Assembly: GCA_964016885.1 (NCBI GenBank)
Contig: OZ024743.1
Location: 2,108,001-2,172,000 of the forward strand
Direction of reading: 5' to 3'
Length of the DNA: 64,000 nucleotides
From: Eledone cirrhosa
Taxonomy: Eukaryota
How positions within the stretch are numbered: the stretch's first letter is position 1; every line of letters starts with the position of its first letter. The translations under genes were made by a program, and so were the position numbers. This document shows positions 25,713 through 59,564 of the stretch, piece after piece. The notes under the pieces were generated by a model. The model did not search any database. It was not told the DNA's origin and was given only the letters and a program-made list of their open reading frames with translations.

Positions 25713-26382
25713 CAGCATGGATTCAGTTTAAAACTGGTTAGACCACTATTACTCACCAGAGTACTCGATACTTGGGGTAGTAGAGTATGGTTATATTATA
25801 AAGAGTTGGGACCGCGACGGCTGAGCTCTTGCCATTGCAATAGTTAGTTCCTGACTCTAATATATATACATGTATGTGTGTTTGTGTGTGTGAGAGAGAG
25901 AGAGAGTGTGTGTGTGTGTGTGTGTGCATTATTTCAAGTAATCAGTGTTGGTTGATCAAGCAATCGCCCGACTTTGGTGTAATCAGATGAAAGCACACCA
26001 TGATGTGGCAACCATAATGATATCAAACAGAATTACCATAATGATATCAAACGGTATGTCAATGTTATAAAAAAGATGAAAAAGGTTATCACGCATACAT
26101 TTTCATTTTATTACATCAACCTCTTATGCACATTTCAAAGACATCAAATTTGTCGTGTAACAATTATATGATGTGTTGTCATCAGACAGGTATTTAGAAG
26201 TAATATTATTTTATTTCTGTTTTTGATATGCTCGCCATAGTTTGGAACTGGATGACGATAAGTTCAGCTATGTGATCACTTATAGCCGAACTGCACAACA
26301 TCGAGTTCCCTACTATGGCGAGCATATCAAAAACAATATAACGTTACATCTAAATAAAGATATAAATGTATGTATGTATGTG

Positions 26383-31128: not shown

Positions 31129-32892
31129 TTATTTTTTAGATCGACACAGGCAGACTTGGAATTTGGGTGTCTTATTACTTGCGCAAATGTCTAGATGTGC
31201 ACTTAGTGGTATTTGTCTCGTGGTTGGATCTCGTAATTGTTGGCGATGAACTGTCATTCTGTTTCTGAGTGTGAGTTTAGTTTGTCCTATATAATCTTCA
31301 TTGCATCCTTTACATTTAATGGCATAAATTAGATTTTTTGATGAGCAAGTGAAGTGATTTTTTACAGTAAAATTTTGTCCTGATTTAAATGTATACGTGT
31401 TGCCTTCAATGAGGTGAGTGCAGGTTCCACAATTAGAGCGACCACATTTTTTGATACTTGGTTGTGGGTTTGTGGTAGGTAATTTGGCATTGGTGAGTAA
31501 TGTTTTCAGTGATTTTGGTTGTCTTTTGCTTTTGATTATTTTGTGTGTTTCAAGGGCTTTTTTCATTCTTGGGTTTTGTTTTAGTAGTGGGATGTTATTG
31601 TGAATAGTGTTGTAAGCTTCCGCATTTCTTGGGTTGTGTGTTGAGATATATGATAGAATATTGGACGTACCTTGAATTTGTTTCTGTTTCCGTAATTCAT
31701 CAATGCCTATTGCTTTAGCCCTTTCTATTCCATTATTTATTAGTAATAGTGGGTACTCTCTCTCAAGTAGAATTTCCTTTAATTCTTGAAGTCTTTTATT
31801 TCGCGTTTCATAATTGGAGACAATTGTGCAAATTCTTCTTGCTAGGTTAAAAGGAATGTTCGTCTTCGTGTGCTTTGGATGGTTGGAGGTGAATAGCAGA
31901 TATTGTTTGGAATCTGTTGGTTTGTAGTGTATGTCAGTTTCGATATTTGTGTCTTTTTTTGTGATTAAGATGTCCAGAAATGGGAGTTGATCTTGGCTGT
32001 ATTCCATTGTGAATTGGATGTGATTATTGATGCCGTTTATTAAGTTTTTGAAATCCTTCAGTTGGTCGAGTGTGTGGGACCAAAGAATGAGGCAATCATC
32101 CCAGTAGCGTTTCCAATTCTCTGATAAATATTTGTGGAAGTTCAATCCGTATTTTGATTTGGACTGTTCATATATCTGGACTTCTAAGTATGCCATGACT
32201 AAGTTGGCATAAGTTGGAGCGGCTTTTGTGCCCATCGCAGTCCCCGATATTTGCTTGTAAGTATTGCCATCGAAATCAAAAAAGTTGTTCTGTAGGATGA
32301 ATTTTAATCCCTCGGTGATGAAGCTTTTTTCTATTCTGTCAGGTATCTCATTGGGATATTTCTCTAGCCAGAATCCTATTGCTTCTAGTCCGTATTGGTG
32401 TGGGATCGTTGTGTAGAGATTCACTACATCGAAAGACACAATAATAGTGTCGTTGTTGACATGTTTGGGGAGGTGGTTTAAGAGGTCCAGATCGTCTCTT
32501 ACAAGGCTTGGTATGTGTTTCAGTATTGGTTTCAGTAGTATGTCTATAAAGTTGCTCAATCTGTGTGTTTCACATTGTGGGCCCGCTACAATTGGTCTTA
32601 ATTTAAGGTCTGTGGGGTATTGTGTGTTCACGCAGGCTGAGGTGGATTGTTTACAGGCATCGTTGATTATTTTACATTTGTGGATCTTCGGAAGTCCGTA
32701 AAGGTTGCTGGTTTTGTATTCAAAATTTGTTAAATAATCGCGTTCCTTTTTAGTTAGGTCTTCCTGGTATCGATAAATCAGTGTGTTTAATTTGGTCATT
32801 ATTTTTGATTGCTGGTAGTTTTTTACTCTTTCATAGTAATTAGCATTTTGTAAGAGAGAGAACATAGAATTTTTATATTTTTCAGCCTCCAT
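31129..32892 (-). mobile_element. Penelope-like element family B (Neptune-like): 587-aa RT + partial GIY-YIG, truncated at both ends
   Basis: LYGLPKIHK, LRPIV, SFDVVNLYT, GTAMGT, RYWDD, LPFLD, KPTD..QYL...SNHP and CGRSNCGTC...FTCSSKNLIYAIKC..C..YIGQT. The ORF ends before the GIY-YIG domain is complete. Confidence 0.93.
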
Positions 32893-32894
32893 AA

Positions 32895-33168
32895 TGACGC
32901 GAAATTTATAATAATGGCGCGAAATTTATTATAATTATTGACAAACCAATCAAATTACTTCTCGAAAAACCTGGTTTTCGAGCCAGTTTTTCCATATAAA
33001 ACAAGTAACATTTAGAGACCAACCAGATGTGAGAAAAACCACAGACCCTCCATCTCAACTCACCTTTTGAAAAGCAGAAGAACTGCGAAACCGGTAAAGG
33101 AACCAAATAAATATATATATTTTTAAAAAAATAAGACTTCAGTTGCATTTTCGATTTCATCCCTTTTT

Positions 33169-33175
<7 letters not shown>
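32895..33175 (+). mobile_element. Inverted pLTR at the 5' end of the family B copy, with promoter motifs and a decayed HHR
   Basis: Directly abuts the truncated ORF in the opposite orientation. Contains GGCGCGAAA (32916), CCAATCA (32946), TATAAAA (32995) and CCTT-TTGAAAA-GCAG..CTGC-GAAACCGGTA-AAGG (33063-33100). Ends at (TA)n. Confidence 0.7.
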
Positions 33176-33225
<50 letters not shown>

Positions 33226-36750: not shown

Positions 36751-37083
36751 TGTGTTTCTGCATAGAACAATAAAAAAAAGGCCAGAAGTCAGAGGTAGGT
36801 TGTTAATTAGTTAATTGTTTTACGATCGTTTCAGAGGGTCGATTGGTCGTGGAAGATCGATGTATTGATCAGCATGGTAGTGGATAGACTGCTACCAATT
36901 TCTAGTCGATCGAACAGGTATTTGAAGACAAGAAATAGGTAGCAGCCTAACCACTACCATCTACTCGATACATCGATGTCCACGATCAATTGACTCTCTG
37001 AAACGATCGTAAAACAATATACTAATTAACTACCTACCTCTAACTTCTATCTTTTTTTTTTCATTGTTCTATGCTCAAACACA
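36751..37083. repeat. Imperfect ~330-bp fold-back unit next to (TA)/(TG)n, carrying only the 3' half of an HHR
   Basis: Arms GCATAGAACAAT...TTTTACGATCGTTTCAGAG... and ...CTCTGAAACGATCGTAAAA...ATTGTTCTATGC. GAAAC-GATC-GTA at 37000. Confidence 0.85.
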
Positions 37084-37261: not shown

Positions 37262-37396
37262 AAGGTTTTATTTAAAATTGTTGGGTTACAACAAGTAAAT
37301 ATTTTATAACTGATATAAAGCACTCGACAAGTTTTTGGAGTATATATACGATATTAAACAAATGGAAACTATATTTATAAAACCATATTTATTTCA

Positions 37397-37452
37397 TTAT
37401 ACATATTTCAGGGATACCATATTAAAAATATGGCATGCCTTCGTCAGATAAA
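37397..37452 (-). ncRNA. Type I HHR (mirror copy)
   Basis: Reverse complement of the motif at 37594-37649. Confidence 0.75.
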
Positions 37453-37593
37453 ATACAATATATAAACAGTTTTATAAATAATTTTGACGTACCATATTAT
37501 AAGCGACCATTAAATTAGGAAGCTGTCTAATTTAATGGTCGCTTATAATATGGTACGTCAAAATTATTTATAAAACTGTTTATATATTGTATT

Positions 37594-37649
37594 TTATCTG
37601 ACGAAGGCATGCCATATTTTTAATATGGTATCCCTGAAATATGTATAAT
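37594..37649 (+). ncRNA. Type I HHR
   Basis: TTAT-CTGACGA-AGGCATGCCATATT/TTT/AATATGGTATCCCT-GAAA-TATGT-ATAA. Confidence 0.75.
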
Positions 37650-37696
37650 GACATAAATATGGTTTTATAAATATAGTTTCCATTTGTTTAATATCG

Positions 37697-37760
<64 letters not shown>

Positions 37761-37766
<6 letters not shown>

Positions 37767-38129
37767 TTAAAGGAGAAAATGAATTGCGTCCGTAGGCGGT
37801 ATGCCGATATGAGTACTCGATGCTCGTGGGGAGCTGAGTATCAATAATAATATATGTGTGTTAACATGTAAAACTCGCGTCTAAGAGTGGTTTAGACGCG
37901 AGTTTACATGTTAACATTATATCTGAGGATGCCAGAGTCAGGATCGATCATCAATCGATCGTTCCTCGAGCTGATGTACAGTGAAACATATGTAATATGT
38001 AATTAAATATGGATATGATGCAACACCGATTCTTTGTTCCCTTATATATTATTATTGATACTCAGCTCCCCACGAGCATCGAGTACTCATATCGGCATAC
38101 CGCCTACGGACGCAATTCATTTTCTCTAA

Positions 38130-38793: not shown

Positions 38794-39652
<859 letters not shown>

Positions 39653-40367: not shown

Positions 40368-41420
40368 TTAGTGAAAATGAAAGTTAGGGTTAGTTGTTAC
40401 CGTGATGAAATAAGATGGCTTTCCCGTGTGTCGAACCACAGTCATCGAATTCTGAAAGCACTCACTGTAGAAGCGAGGGAAACCATAGATTGAAGGAAGA
40501 AGAACAATTCTCCGGCCTGCATTTACTGAATCTCCTTCAGCCACAGCATCATACAAACCCTCATACTTTTCAGCTCGTATCATGTTACGGGCCCATTTGA
40601 GGCGACAATGTTCTATTTTTGCCTGGGCATCTACAGCATATTGCTGCATCAGCCGCCTGCTCTTCATGATAATGTTACAGTTACCTTGCCTAACCTGAAA
40701 CCGATAACAGTAGAAATCAGTGGGTGTGAGTATCTGGTTGTTGTCAATCCTTTTCAAACCATCCTGAAACCCATCATTCCCCCAAGGAAACAGCATCACG
40801 TAATGCAGAGGATCATAAGAACGGTGCAACTGATGAATCCTCTGAAGACCACCATCTCTTTTATGAATGATGACATCCAAAAGACTTAATGCTGTATCAG
40901 GTTGGATAACAGCAATCTCAGATGCCATGGGAAGATTATATGTACGACAATGAAAATCAGTGGGTTTTACTTTGTCAGCATGTAGGACAATATTCACATT
41001 TTAAGAGACTGGCATTCCAGTGACTGCCTTGAAGCTTCTTATATAGGTGTTGCAGTAGTGCAAGTTTTTTTTCAGGTCCTGCAGAACAGCAGCATCTAAA
41101 TTAGCATGGTGCAAGCGGTTCTGAAGCTCATGGTCTGTATCATAGAAGTAAAGCTGCGCAAACTTTGGTGAAGCATCACTTGGAAGTAGTGATCCAATAA
41201 TATGACAAATCTTACCTTGGATCTTAAATGTGGGACTAAATCCTGGTGCTTTAATCTCTTTGCAACCAATTGAAGCTAAGGCAAGCACATTGTTATATGC
41301 CCGTATCTTATGGAGAAAATAATTTCCTGCTTGAGTGATAGCGAAATATTTCAGTATATTTGGTGGAGGAGGAGGAAATTGAGGGAGTTTCCTTTTTCCC
41401 TGGAAGCAACACAAAGATTT
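40368..41420 (-). mobile_element. Helitron RepHel fragment (Helitron_like_N region), pseudogenised
   Basis: IRAYNNVLALAS, FKIQGKICH.IGSLLP, FAQLYFYD, YDPLHYVMLFPWG, RLMQQYAVD..AKIE..RL, IRAEKY and GKP.YFIT.T.NP, with an in-frame stop near 41001. Confidence 0.9.
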
Positions 41421-43249: not shown

Positions 43250-44425
43250 TGACACTCAGTGCTATTTTTCTGTATTCCCGTATTTTGATTTGGGATCTAT
43301 GGACAGTCATGCGTTGGCGGAGGCTGTTTTTAGTCTGGCCTATGTATTGTTCTCGACAACCTGAGCAAGTTAATACATATATTAGGTTTTCTGATGCGCA
43401 TGTGAAATTGTGTTTTACTATAAAACGTTGTCCTTGTTTGAAGTAGAATTCCGAACACTCTATTAGGTTGATGCAGTACTTTGGCATGTGTTAGGATGTT
43501 TTTCATTGACTTAGATTGTCTTTTGCTCTTTATGATATCGTGTGTTCGAAGGATTTGGTTCATTCTATGGTCCTTTTTCAATACAGGGATGTTCTGGAGG
43601 ATGGTGTCAAAGGCCTCATTGTTGAGGGTGTTGTGTGTGGAGATGTATGGAAGAGCTTTTAGTTTCGCTTGGTTAATTTTAGGGTGTCTAAGGTCCTGGG
43701 TACTGAGTTTTAGAGCACGTAGGATTCCATTGTCAATTAGTGATGCAGGGTAGTCCCTGCTTATGAGTGTGTCCTTTAGTTCTTGTAGACGTAAGTAACG
43801 GGTGTTTTTATTGGAGACTATAGTACAGATTCTCTTGGCTAAGTTGTAGGGAATATTAATTTTAACTTGTCTAGGGTGGCATGAATTGAAAGGAAGATAT
43901 TGCTTGGAGTCTGTGGGCTTGTAGTATATGTCTGTTTCTATTTTTTGTTATGAATCTTAATGAGAATGTCGAGGAAGGGAAGTTGTTGATGGCTGTATTC
44001 CATTGTAAAATTAATATTCGTGTTGAGCCCATTTATAAGGGTGTGAAATTCTTTAAGTTTCTCGATGTTTTCGTGCCAAAGGATGAAGCAGTCATCTAGA
44101 TATCTCTTCCAGTTCGTTTCCAGGTATCTCATGACTAGGTTAGCATAAGTGGGGGCCGTTTTCGTTCCCATAACGGTCCCAGATGTCTGCCTATAGAATT
44201 TGTTATTGAAAACGAAGTAATTATTCTCCAAAATAAATTTGAGTCCTTCTATCACGAATTCTTTTTTGATGCGTTGTGGGAGTTCATTGTGGTAATTATC
44301 CAGCCAGAATTGGATAGCTTCTATTCCTAGGTTGTGGGGGATGTTGGAGTATAGGTTGACTACATCGAGCGTCACTAGCAGGGTTTGTTCAGTAAGGGGT
44401 ATATTAGGGAGGCGGTTGAGCATTT
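43250..44425 (-). mobile_element. Penelope-like family B (Neptune-like) decayed fragment: RT, thumb, partial GIY-YIG
   Basis: TLDVVNLYSNIPH, GTVMGTKTAPTYANLVM, WKRYLDD, LPFLD and FTCASENLIYVLTCSGC.EQYIGQT. Clearly homologous to 31129-32892, with frameshifts. Confidence 0.9.
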
Positions 44426-44574
44426 GAGCATTGTTGTTATGACAATACTATACATCATTTCACCGCTTTTGTTATTGATGTTATTGATATTCTTTTGAGA
44501 GAATCGTTTTTGCAAATGACTGAAAATATCGAATAAGGTACGCCATTTTTAACAGAACCACAAAAATACTGGTC

Positions 44575-49675: not shown

Positions 49676-52600
49676 ATTGTTATACTTTGGGAGGGTCATG
49701 TTGCCAATAAGAAACACACGCACCAGTTGCTTTCACTTCAATTTATTATAATAAATTTATAAATTTAGGAATTTACAAATTTCTGGTTGGTTGGTTGGTT
49801 CCACAACCAGATAGTTGTTTATATATTGTCAAAGTTCTTTCGTCACACATTCTGTGACCTCTTCAGTGACTGGGGATTCTTTTCTTTGTTTTTGTGCCCC
49901 TCCTTTGTTCTGTCCTACGCCATTTTGTTTCTGTGTGTGTGTGTTGTGTGCTCAGTCTGCGCATGCGCCACATCCGGGTGTCTGTGTGTGTTTATATTTG
50001 TTTATTTATTTGTTTATTTACATGTTACCGGTTGGTTGTTTGTTCTATGTGTGTGTGTGTTTTCATTTTGTCCTTAATTGTAAATTGTGATGTTGCTGTT
50101 CCACTCATATTTTCTATTTAATTTTGGTTGTAATTCTTTTATGTTTATTGCCTCTGTGATTTGTCTAAACATTGCGTCTTTTCTGTGTGTAGATTCTATT
50201 TTTATTTCTATGTTCTCTAATTTACCCTTATGTTCTATTTTAGCATGTTGGTAGAGTACAGATGATTCTTTACTATCTTGAAGGTCTCGCCAGTGTTCAT
50301 TTATCCGTTCCCCTACACTACGAGCTGTCTCACCTATGTACACTATATTTTTGTCTCTACATTGTCCTTCAGTACATCTTATGCTATACACTACATTTCT
50401 AGTTTTACAGTTAATATGGGGGCTTATTTTACAGGTTATACATTTCTTATCTATACAGGGGGGTCTTTGGAAAGGGTATGTCTTGCTAATAAGTGTTTTT
50501 ACGGAGGTACCTGGTCTTTCTACTATCTTAATATTGAGTTTATGTTTAGCTAGGGCCCTTCTAAATTTGTAAGCTAATTCACCTCTAGGGGTTGTATCGA
50601 TGAACATTACACTCTGGTATTTATTGCTATCATACCATGAGTTTATTCTATTAGCCTTATTCCTAGTTCTTTCTATTCTATTCCAAAATTTGCTCCTATA
50701 CAAGGGGCAGGTCCCATTTGTGTCATTATTTACCATTTTCCCATTTGGTTCTGGCTCCTCTATACACTCTGATTCTATCTCTCTGATTGTAACCAGAGAA
50801 CTGCATACGGTGGATGAAGTGTTGTATGTATCTCTCTAGTTCTTCGGGGTTGCACATGCGGGACACGTTTCTCATCACCCGTACCAAATCCGCAATCAGT
50901 ATGTTGATTTTGGTATGGTCCGAAACAGCCGAGTTTCAGTGGATCAGATGTTTGGAAGTCATGGGTTTGGCATAATGGGAATGGAGGATTTGTTTTTTGT
51001 TATTAATGGTATCTAACCAGAGCTCTGTGTCTAGTACAAGTAATCGATGGTTTGGGTGGTTACTTGGGTAGTCTATAGTAACTCTAATACTCTGGTGGAT
51101 GGAGTTAGCTATTTGCTGGATGCTTTCCATTGTGTTTTTCTCTAGTTCCTGACTGTTCTCTAGTGGGGGTGTCTTAACTACGATGTTTATATCGTCAACG
51201 TAGCGGGAGTACATTATCAGGGTTAAGGGGTCTTCTAATTGTTCTTTAAGTTTAAGTTTAAGTCTACTGTCCCACCATACCATGAATAAGTTAGCTACAT
51301 CGCCTGCAATTCTAACACCAATGGCTGCTCCTTCCTCTTGGGCATATGTTTTTCCATTAAATTTTAACATATGTTCCTTAAGGGTTAGTTTTATGCTGGC
51401 CCCTACCACATGTGCAATCATTTTCTTCAGTTCATCGTGGTTTTCGGGTGTCCGTATGGCTCTGGTCCATCCGTTCCATCTATCTGTGTGGGTTTTCTTG
51501 GTCATTGAGGTAATGGTAGGTGCTCTGCCTCTTGCTGGTCTTGTAGGGCACAGGTTGCTAAGGTCATATGTGTCTAGGTAATTATTACTATAGGTAAGTT
51601 TAAGTAGGAGTCCCAGCTCACTGGTATCAATCCCACGGAACTCAACATTGCTCTCACTGATCAGTTCTACGCATTTCTCCACAGCAAAATCCACGTCAAT
51701 AGATGGATACAGGGACACAACATCCATACTACCTATTATGCAGTTTATTAGGTCCCTAGATCGGTTACTCTCGCCGATTCTGCTGAGGAGGTCCTCCGTG
51801 CTGTCACATACATCTGGGGACATTTCAATGATGGGGCGTATGATCAGGGAGAGGAAGTAGGACAGTCTGTAGTTACTAGCAATGTTAGCCCCACAGACTG
51901 GCCGTGTTGGTGGTCCCGTGACAGGGTCACTGCCCGTGTTATGGTCTTTTCGAATCCCATACAACGCCGGCACGTCATTGTTCCAGGCCTGGAAGTTGTT
52001 GGCAGTCCTTTTGTTGGGCTGCATTATATTCGTCCACATCACCATATGAGCATTGAGGGCTTTTTCTCTATCCTCATGCTCCTGTGGTGTTACCTCTCTT
52101 GTGTTAGTGATGTGGGGTTGCATTGCCTGGATGTAGTCTGGCAGGCTGTCAACCGACATTCTGCCAGACTTGTCTGTTGGAAAGCATGCTATCTCTCCAT
52201 TACGTGAGCGCTGCATGAGCTTACACAAGCCATTTGCAGATTTTTCTCCCAGTTGCTGGGCCTCCATTCTATTATGCTTCTTGCTATACTGTTCTATAAT
52301 ATTTCTAAGTTCGGATTTAGCTATAATAAATTGTGCTTCTGTTTGTTCATCGACCTGCGACGGAAATTGCGTGCGTTTGTTAAATGGTAAAGTCGTGGCG
52401 TGGACTCGTCGCAGGTCGAACGACTTATAGGAGGGATTATAAAAAGTAGAGTTCCAGGCTGCTGCTTTATGTGTACTAGTGCTATTGTTATTGTTAGTTG
52501 TGTTGTTTCTATTTCTATTTCTATTTCCACCAACAGCCTCATGGTTGTTTCTATGTCTCTCATAATTACTCCTGTCTCTTTCCACTGGCTCATTGTTATT

Positions 52601-52700
52601 ATCTACTCTATTTTGTGTGTCTGTGTGTTCGTCTTGGTTATTTTCTTTGTCCATAGTCTCCCTTCTCCTATTTTTAATTTCATTCGCACCGTTTCCTTTC
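49676..52700 (-). mobile_element. Penelope-like family A, copy 2 (most complete; one stop, one frameshift)
   Basis: 606-aa RT ORF (SMDVVSLYPSI, YSRYVDD) continues past a TGA at 50936 and a frameshift near 50740 into a 220-aa GIY-YIG ORF (NVVYSIRC...YIGET). The 3' end ATGACCCTCCCAAAGTATAACAAT matches copy 1. Confidence 0.95.
49828..49870 (-). ncRNA. Minimal type I HHR in the family A pLTR
   Basis: Reverse complement: GTCA-CTGAAGA-G-GTCACA/GAATG/TGTGAC-GAAAG-AA-CTT-TGAC. Same position as the HHR at 30146. Confidence 0.88.
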
Positions 52701-52760
52701 GCTATATGTCTCTCCACCACTCCCCTACACGCCCTTTTAACTCTGTTCCCACACACTTCT

Positions 52761-58123: not shown

Positions 58124-58264
58124 AGTTTATGTTGGTTGTATACCAACACCTCAGTATGCAGGCTGGAGCACTCGACGAAGTGCGCAGGTTGGTTTGGTTA
58201 CTCCGGAGTAGTGTAAAATAAAGTTAAATAAAAGTCAAATGATTAAAATTTAGCTTCGTTTATT

Positions 58265-58319
58265 ACTGCTATATATATTTCAGTGACAGCCATCTTTGGC
58301 TGTGACCTCTTCAGGCAGT
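58265..58319 (-). ncRNA. Type I HHR (mirror copy)
   Basis: Exact reverse complement of 58680-58734. Confidence 0.85.
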
Positions 58320-58679
58320 TTGAATTAGTATGGTATAGACAAGTACATATGTTGTTTAGGTGTATGATATTGTCAATACTCTGATATGCCCAGTTCCTTG
58401 TTGGGTTGTTAATTCACTGGGGAACTGGAGTTCCCCAGTGAATTAACAACTCCAGTTCCCCAGTGAATTAACAACCCAACAAGGAACTGGGCATATCAGA
58501 GTATTGACAATATCATACACCTGACAATATCATCACTGGGGAACTGGAGTTCCCCAGTGAATTAACAACTCCAGTTCCCCAGTGAATTAACAACCCAACA
58601 AGGAACTGGGCATATCAGAGTATTGACAATATCATACACCTAAACAACATATGTACTTGTCTATACCATACTAATTCAA

Positions 58680-58734
58680 ACTGCCTGAAGAGGTCACAGC
58701 CAAAGATGGCTGTCACTGAAATATATATAGCAGT
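58680..58734 (+). ncRNA. Type I HHR
   Basis: ACTGC-CTGAAGA-GGTCACAGCC/AAAGAT/GGCTGTCACT-GAAA-TATATATA-GCAGT, followed by AATAAA. Confidence 0.85.
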
Positions 58735-58785
58735 AATAAACGAAGCTAAATTTTAATCATTTGACTTTTATTTAACTTTATTTTA

Positions 58786-58931
<146 letters not shown>

Positions 58932-59020
58932 TATAGTAATAATAATAAAATTGAAGACTAAAATCCAAAGAGGGCTCGATAAGGAAAATATATATCAAAT
59001 ATATAAGAACCGTAGAGCAA

Positions 59021-59169
59021 ATATTTATTAAAATAACAGATTAAAGTTTAAGCAAAGAATCGCTGCTTTCACCCTTAACGGGATCTTCTGAAACTAACCT
59101 TCAGTTTCAGAAGATCCCGTTAAGGGTGAAAGCAGCGATTCTTTGCTTAAACTTTAATCTGTTATTTTA

Positions 59170-59177
<8 letters not shown>
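59021..59177. repeat. Perfect palindrome, 75-bp arms, 7-nt loop, with an HHR-like remnant
   Basis: Arms 59021-59095 and 59103-59177. Contains CAGAAGA-T-CCC/GTTAA/GGG-T-GAAAGC. The right end is (TA)n. Confidence 0.92.
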
Positions 59178-59217
<40 letters not shown>

Positions 59218-59272
59218 GTGAGGTTTTTTTTACAAAATGAAAAATAACCGAGGTGTCCTACACGAGTGAAAG

Positions 59273-59470
59273 TATAAGGAAAAAAGATAAAATCGAAAAT
59301 GCAACTGGAGTCTTATTTAAAAAAATATATATATATTTATTTGGTTCGTTTGGTTCCTTGAGATAGAGGGTCTGTGGTTTTTTTCTCAAGGAACCAAACG
59401 AACCAAATAAATATATATATATTTTTTTAAATAAGACTCCAGTTGCATTTTCGATTTTATCTTTTTTCCT

Positions 59471-59474
<4 letters not shown>
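59273..59474. repeat. Perfect palindrome, 91-bp arms, derived from the family B pLTR terminus
   Basis: Arms 59273-59363 and 59384-59474. The right arm matches 33097-33175 and the loop is the reverse complement of ~33034-33056. Confidence 0.92.

Positions 59475-59564
<90 letters not shown>

Follow-up and report, generated by a model that had tools for sequence, protein, structure and literature searches.

The hairpin at 59273-59474 of the window (the whole stretch of 64,000 nucleotides analyzed, from Eledone cirrhosa contig OZ024743.1) is a known type of Penelope-like element (PLE) insertion, ordinary and slightly damaged, which is unusual only in the loss of its hammerhead ribozyme (HHR) motif. 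It belongs to a family of over 10,000 copies and is one of thousands of mirror-image stub insertions. The stub is a tailed copy standing head-to-head with a tail-less inverted copy in a TA array; on balance, its HHR was probably lost by an ordinary microhomology slip and one arm copied from the other. The anatomy, the family, the copy number, the end positions and the rarity of the deletion are directly established. A sequence-only reading of the window had linked its hairpins to the PLE machinery, and this link stands, as the hairpin is a PLE product built from PLE pLTR sequence.

Positions in the element are counted from zero at the first base 3' of the predicted HHR cut (GTA/AAGG), which is window position 33097 in a sibling copy. 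The palindrome is exact, with arms at 59273-59363 and 59384-59474 (91/91 bp identical) and a 20-nt loop at 59364-59383. The left arm (minus strand) is the body of the tailed (long) pLTR copy, with the HHR deleted and a 9-nt duplication; the right arm (plus strand) is the tail-less (short) inverted copy, which covers -44 to +80 and carries the deletion and duplication as in the left arm. The loop (minus strand) is pLTR sequence from upstream of the HHR (about -62 to -45) and matches 33035-33052. On one arm only, and outside the palindrome, lies the 63-nt PLE tail (59211-59272, minus strand; about +81 to +143 from the predicted cut). Read on the minus strand, the inner part of the hairpin runs from TGAGA (-67) through upstream pLTR sequence to TCTCAA (-44 to -39) and jumps to GGAACC (+2), after which come the duplication, the body to +80, the tail to +143 (59211) and then (TA)n. 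The centre is the TGAGA/TCTCA join at -67/-44 (59384-59388), which is common to both arms. The 40-nt HHR deletion has an AA microhomology at 59388-59389 (plus strand; mirrored at 59358-59359; compatible with a breakpoint at 0 to +2), and the tandem duplication AAGGAACCA / AACGAACCA (59388-59405, plus strand), present in both arms, is likely a restart of synthesis. Both the duplication and the deletion begin within -1 to +2 of the predicted cut. The hairpin is flanked by TA arrays, in which a target site duplication is not readable: a (TA)n target array on the tail side (59178-59210), and on the other side, after 59474, a short TA run followed by (TG)n. One 80-nt piece assembled from short reads covers the loop together with the two inner junctions (two runs from one sample, possibly the source of the DNA), indicating that the hairpin is not a long-read assembly artefact. 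Two runs from other organisms gave no match to the junction, which does not prove that it is absent there, and no RNA run was among those listed for the sequence, which says nothing about its expression.

The HHR-less AA junction has only three matches genome-wide, on which ground an HHR-lacking subfamily was rejected, and the other two copies carry the junction in one arm only. Loss of the HHR by splicing was likewise rejected, there being no GT-AG ends on either strand. The T/A run is identical between the arms of this hairpin and differs in 35/40 other pairs. With the deletion, the duplication and the T/A run all common to the two arms, one arm was likely templated on its partner, either at birth or at a later time.

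The sequence-only reading had traced the palindrome to a pLTR 26 kb away (match to 33097-33175), and the similarity was confirmed: the right arm (59396-59481) aligns with 33096-33182 at 87% identity (E-value 8e-25 within the window), and the loop with the inner arm aligns with 33058-33028 at 90% (E-value 2e-6), so that the loop does come from upstream pLTR sequence as claimed. This sibling (32915-33175, plus strand) is a tail-less inverted pLTR arm spanning -182 to +80, a separate insertion of the hairpin's family and not its parent. It was discarded as the source because it has no tail, 4/46 core bases differ, and 234/323 arms compared are closer to the hairpin, in a comparison that takes in 20 loci chosen for shared haplotype. 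The further claim that arm homology starts almost exactly at the ribozyme cut also fails, as the arm begins at 59384 with TCTC, equivalent to 33053-33056, 44 nt upstream of the cut. The AAGGAACC near the inner arm end marks the 40-nt HHR deletion at the AA microhomology, not a turning point.

Beside the sibling arm lies a remnant of the family B ORF (31149-32907, minus strand), with a reverse transcriptase (RT) plus a GIY-YIG domain at the C-terminus and truncated at both ends. Pfam RVT_1 (E-value 6e-7) and GIY-YIG (E-value 2e-5) were detected in 31129-32922, and both again at locus L081. The family thus has the single ORF with RT and C-terminal GIY-YIG of an EN+ PLE, as well as a 3'-end pLTR that recurs ahead of the ORF in partial tandems (L002, L081), and an inverted 5'-truncated copy with a one-sided tail (63/66 pairs). 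In L002 the pLTR lies 1.1 kb past the GIY-YIG end, and in 21/30 loci holding the 5' part of the ORF the pLTR tail ends 26 nt before the ATG. The tail continues as ATATACCC. The linker motif CGRSNCGTC, which precedes the GIY-YIG motif, fits the CX2-5CxxC between RT and EN by which the Neptune/Nematis clade is defined (PMC8557442), which makes the element a candidate Neptune/Nematis member. Copies end at -73, +80 and +143, and at 95/131 tail ends the next 12 nt are pure TA. Non-LTR retrozymes consist of head-to-tail monomers delimited by HHR cuts; the copies here are solo or head-to-head. A MITE or DNA transposon with terminal inverted repeats was rejected, the ends being asymmetric and the centres varying among copies. 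Counted as exact pattern matches, a 25-mer from the loop occurs 10,504 times in the genome and a downstream 28-mer 13,161 times, and the reversed controls gave none. The exact 28-mer is present in 16/30 arms, which gives about 25,000 arms, or about one per 120 kb, so that a neighbor 26 kb away is unremarkable. Head-to-head pairs number about 7,000 on a rough estimate.

The window holds several other elements. Two near-perfect hairpins (58214-58785 and 37341-37704) each carry, in both of their arms, a complete minimal hammerhead motif that belongs to another family. Adjacent to the hairpin under study is a further one from another family (59021-59177; 75-bp arms), which has its own one-sided tail at about 58940-59020 and relatives in 28 other loci examined, with varying centres. 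Three of the four inverted-repeat elements at 37773-38126, 38828-39477, 36814-37018 and 26218-26335 have relatives in the examined loci, and a simple pattern search found no hammerhead in the four. A second PLE family (50074-52759, minus strand) has RT and GIY-YIG in two frames, and a C3-G8 hammerhead motif lies beside it on the opposite strand (52764, plus strand). A broken ORF at 43251-44435 (minus strand) is 54-60% identical to the family B protein, and a Helitron_like_N domain fragment lies at 40371-41000 (minus strand; E-value 6e-19). From about 700 to 24100, all three minus-strand frames contain open stretches of up to 3,139 codons, which likely reflect a long tandem array.

A hammerhead-like motif is present beside the family B ORF, in agreement with the sequence-only reading. 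It is a predicted minimal type I hammerhead (33063-33100, plus strand) of the U3-A8 core variant, with a palindromic ACCGGT stem III and a GTA at 33094-33096, after which (33096) the cut is predicted. The predicted fold has the core boxes, stems I and II, the palindromic stem III and the NUH triplet of minimal PLE hammerheads, and a predicted dimer fold runs through the ACCGGU of stem III. Rfam gave no hammerhead match, only miRNA-hairpin noise. The HHR core positions are 98-100% conserved in 197 arms, and most flanking sequence is likewise conserved; core conservation is therefore no sign of selection. A G-to-C change at +2 is present in 1/197 intact arms, yet it occurs at three junctions near the cut (L031, L319, L089), twice in the first pass of a duplication. 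The minimal PLE hammerheads described in PMC4209133 (Cervera and de la Pena 2014) share the U3-A8 core, the short stem I and a palindromic stem III suited to dimers, and motifs 100-700 bp apart on opposite strands were described there. Stem II of the sequence-predicted motif here has 4 bp, whereas the Schistosoma motifs have 7-8 bp (PMC4209133).

Most stubs begin well upstream of the predicted cut, likely at a transcription start. Among 121 arms from 82 loci picked by a downstream anchor, 33 start upstream of -75, 66 at -75 to -56, 5 at -55 to -6, 6 at -5 to +4 and 11 further down; none starts at -90 to -76. The sequence-only reading had proposed mapping inner arm ends against the cut, and for the bulk of this sample the mapping speaks against it, since 2 arms begin exactly at the cut as compared with the 66 upstream. 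A second sample gave 39/82 starts at -75 to -56 and 2 at -7 to +4. The 5' wall at -73/-72 (33024-33025, plus strand) lies in an initiator-like CCAGATG and is a predicted transcription start. A predicted TATA box, TATAAAA (32995-33001, plus strand; at -102), lies 30 nt upstream of the wall; core promoters place a TATA box about 30 nt above the start. A small hairpin has its 5' base at the wall as well, and solo 5' ends show no evident cap-derived G. The possibility of a splice acceptor at -72 was rejected, as neither solo nor paired 5' ends share a common upstream exon.

How the two arms of a pair relate bears on whether they come from one cDNA or two. One tailed and one tail-less arm make up 63/66 pairs, and 42/45 pairs in a further set. 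The family has two subfamilies in a ratio of 100:97, yet 29 pairs agree in subfamily and none clearly disagrees (15 pairs are unclassified, and one of these, L109, is possibly discordant). In 36 adjacent pairs, the arms end within 10 nt of each other in 22, the tailed arm extends further in 7, and the tail-less arm in 7 (one doubtful). The commonest join has a 1-nt centre. The TGAGA/TCTCA join recurs in 14 other loci (14/19), in the polarity of this copy in 8 and in the opposite polarity in 6, and 12 of these 14 loci keep both HHRs intact. A single cDNA that folds back can produce neither a tailed arm copied on a shorter tailed one's partner, as those 7 pairs with the longer tail-less arm and those 6 joins of opposite polarity would require, nor a centre of 1 nt; that is, it cannot make the tail from a template that lacks it. 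That each target end primed its own cDNA on a common RNA is the simplest reading, since the pairs combine a tailed with a tail-less arm and have alleles in common, yet carry separate deletions. The T-run/A-run boundary at about +20 to +33 (33117-33131) is the feature that differs between arms of one insertion in most pairs; T and A run changes are anticorrelated (r -0.87), and total length is kept.

In a minority class of insertions, the two ends lie close to the cut. When pairs were scanned for a location of both ends within +6 to -24, 90 matches resulted, where a rough estimate expects 1-2 if the ends are independent. Here the end mapping gave partial support to the sequence-only reading, as both arms of these roughly 90 matches stop near the cut and cluster at -2 to +2. 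The 50 matches listed represent 47 insertions, which were read by eye (15 loci confirmed by script): 17 are joined at GG(TT/AA)CC, immediately inside the cut, in 11 the two ends fall in -2 to +2, 1 is at -2/-3, 5 are centred on ACCGGT, 4 are at -4/+5, 6 have one end at -10 to -17, and 3 are of other kinds. The box of -2 to +2 that holds 11/47 makes up 5% of the allowed combinations (p 2e-5). A cleaved template common to both cDNAs predicts such paired ends, which are a candidate trace of in vivo cleavage. The class may possibly come instead from later loss of palindrome centres or from RT stalling at stem I. In a window comparison on small samples (56 pairs), 1 pair has both ends at -55 to -8 and 9 have both downstream of -7; these 9 sit on AT-rich quasi-palindromes. 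Arms with a wall-reaching partner show no excess at the cut, with 161 matches in the cut window and 174 in an upstream control window. Among 100 matches listed and read by eye (30 checked by script), 11 have their end at -3, 8 at -14 and, apart from this copy, 3 at 0.

Deletions in the HHR region gave 77 matches, of which 74 were examined (3/77 left out) and 62 events modelled, 11/73 events with more than one mismatch having been dropped. Each further nt of microhomology raises the deletion rate about 3-fold, and breakpoints are not enriched at the cut (8/62; rate ratio 0.56, p 0.11). As read by eye, 32 insertions carry a deletion in one arm only (14 tailed, 18 tail-less) and 2 in both, one of which is this copy. 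One-arm deletions could be post-insertion damage and hence no proof of separate cDNAs. In L192, a deletion is common to both arms, which otherwise differ. Restart duplications occur in 0/204 arms with the HHR 3' half upstream and in 3/77 without it (2 insertions, one being this copy).

For the family, we tentatively propose that a PLE dimer copies one RNA twice and that the stubs record RNA 5' ends, the major one a TATA start and the minor one the hammerhead cut; as a whole this is plausible but falls short of probable. The part on the two cDNAs is probable: the pLTR promoter would start the RNA at -73/-72, and the element protein would cut both strands of a TA array. The two 3' ends would then serve as primers for reverse transcription of a common RNA, one at +143 and the other at +80, and both cDNAs would reach the RNA 5' end and be fused either directly or through short microhomologies. 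As the ORF follows immediately on the tail, an RNA that starts at the wall would carry the +80 and +143 sites close to its 5' end, and stubs would be run-off products of internal initiation. In the copy at 59273-59474, synthesis may have stalled at the HHR 3' edge, restarted 9 nt back, then skipped 40 nt at AA and reached -67, and the second arm would have been templated on the first, either by fold-back at TCTCA/TGAGA at birth or by later arm-to-arm repair.

The sequence-only reading suggested an HHR-cleaved 3' RNA fragment, copied and then folded back, as the template of this copy. In its strict form, with only such a fragment from the 33-kb copy and a fold at the cut, the explanation is barely credible: although the AAGGAACC lies 4 nt from the inner arm end, the element contains 27 nt from upstream of the predicted cut, the centre join is at -67/-44, and the 33-kb copy is tail-less and has diverged further than most copies have. 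With upstream sequence in its loop, the hairpin cannot have had the cleaved 3' fragment as its only template. A modified version, in which RT met a cut end and then jumped upstream, is possible, if doubtful. Synthesis would have begun on HHR-cleaved RNA, reached the cut end, restarted and reached it again, whereupon RT switched at AA to either the upstream fragment or an RNA that had not been cut, and the resulting cDNA folded back at TCTCA/TGAGA. Such a course suits the start of both irregularities at -1 to +2 and the excess of matches with both ends near the cut; of the 47 listed insertions, those in the -2 to +2 box and the 17 at GG(TT/AA)CC also agree with it, with only 5 on the upstream perfect ACCGGT palindrome, and several minority-class insertions show restarts at the cut, the L319 duplication being near-identical. 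Set against this are the lack of a breakpoint excess at the cut, the one-armed state of the two other AA junctions, the small cross-window control (1 vs 9 of 56 pairs), and stem I, which would stall RT at the same place without cleavage.

Features common to both arms would also follow, under the two-cDNA model, from a source locus that was already HHR-less and duplicated and whose RNA was faithfully copied into both arms. L192, whose arms likewise have one deletion in common though otherwise different, and the two arm variants in 69 genome matches accord with such a source, but no promoter-bearing copy with the junction is among the three matches, and the T/A run, unequal in most other pairs, is identical here; this origin is improbable. 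For A. vaga Penelope, a published hypothesis attributes head-to-head junction palindromes to self-priming on an antisense template (PMC3846280). Such self-priming is very improbable here, as it does not predict a wall at the sense TATA/initiator, the fixed +143/+80 ends, the 1-nt centres, or both polarities of asymmetric joins. The favored reading, with an ordinary microhomology slip and arm-from-arm copying, has its own difficulties: the duplication and the deletion both begin at the cut, the AA junction arose 3 times, restart duplications are confined to arms without the HHR 3' half upstream, and the class with both ends near the cut is real. The RNA start at -73/-72 is a prediction from sequence, with no cap-derived G and with the wall at a small-hairpin base.

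In LINE-1 twin priming, cDNA synthesis on a single RNA is primed at either end of the target, and the two products are joined through microhomologies. The L1 cDNAs are non-overlapping, whereas here there is near-full overlap and there are two fixed start sites. With EN+ PLE insertions, as described in PMC3846280 (Arkhipova 2013) and PMC8557442 (Craig 2021), the family shares a 5'-truncated copy with an adjacent inverted copy, a one-sided tail, junction palindromes, a (TA)n target bias and an HHR in the pLTR; the inverted pLTR, tail, junction palindromes and TA bias are thus already described. The A. vaga PLE pLTR has a TATA and an initiator-like motif, as here (same papers), while the D. virilis Penelope promoter is described as TATA-less, which counts against the favored reading. 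On the other hand, the tail here is 63 nt as compared with 30-40 in published EN+ PLEs (PMC3846280, PMC8557442), about half of the arms are stubs with the same 5' end, and this copy lacks the HHR. The copy statistics favor two cDNAs on one sense RNA over the antisense self-priming of PMC3846280. In a literature search that covered the main texts of open papers, no proposal of two overlapping cDNAs on one PLE RNA and no mapping of insertion ends to the HHR cut was found.

The family bears on how PLE inverted repeats and tails form, stated to be open in PMC8557442 and PMC3846280, and on whether minimal PLE hammerheads cleave in vivo, stated to be open in PMC4209133 and PMC11167929. Its thousands of young stubs are a countable record, from which the -73/-72 start, two cDNAs per RNA and a small cut-end class are predicted. 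If true, the cut-end class would be genomic evidence of a minimal PLE ribozyme cleaving in the germline, and the hairpin at 59273-59474 would record RT jumping across the cut. PAc, a Poseidon element of Anolis carolinensis, cuts and extends both DNA strands in vitro, and has two RT start sites bounding the tail, a predicted dimer, and uncleaved RNA as the main substrate (Frangieh 2024; PMC11167929), behavior that matches the two-cDNA reading. In contrast to PAc, both 3' ends here lie at TATA-like bases matching the target, the HHR precedes the ATG by about 170 nt, a Cys motif of Neptune/Nematis type is present in the linker, and a minority of insertions have their ends at the predicted cut, a place at which PMC11167929 found no RNA read ends. 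With non-LTR retrozymes (bioRxiv 10.64898/2026.07.22.740005) the stubs share an HHR, a non-coding nature and a relationship to the pLTR, but they are dispersed and solo or head-to-head rather than arranged in head-to-tail, cut-to-cut arrays.
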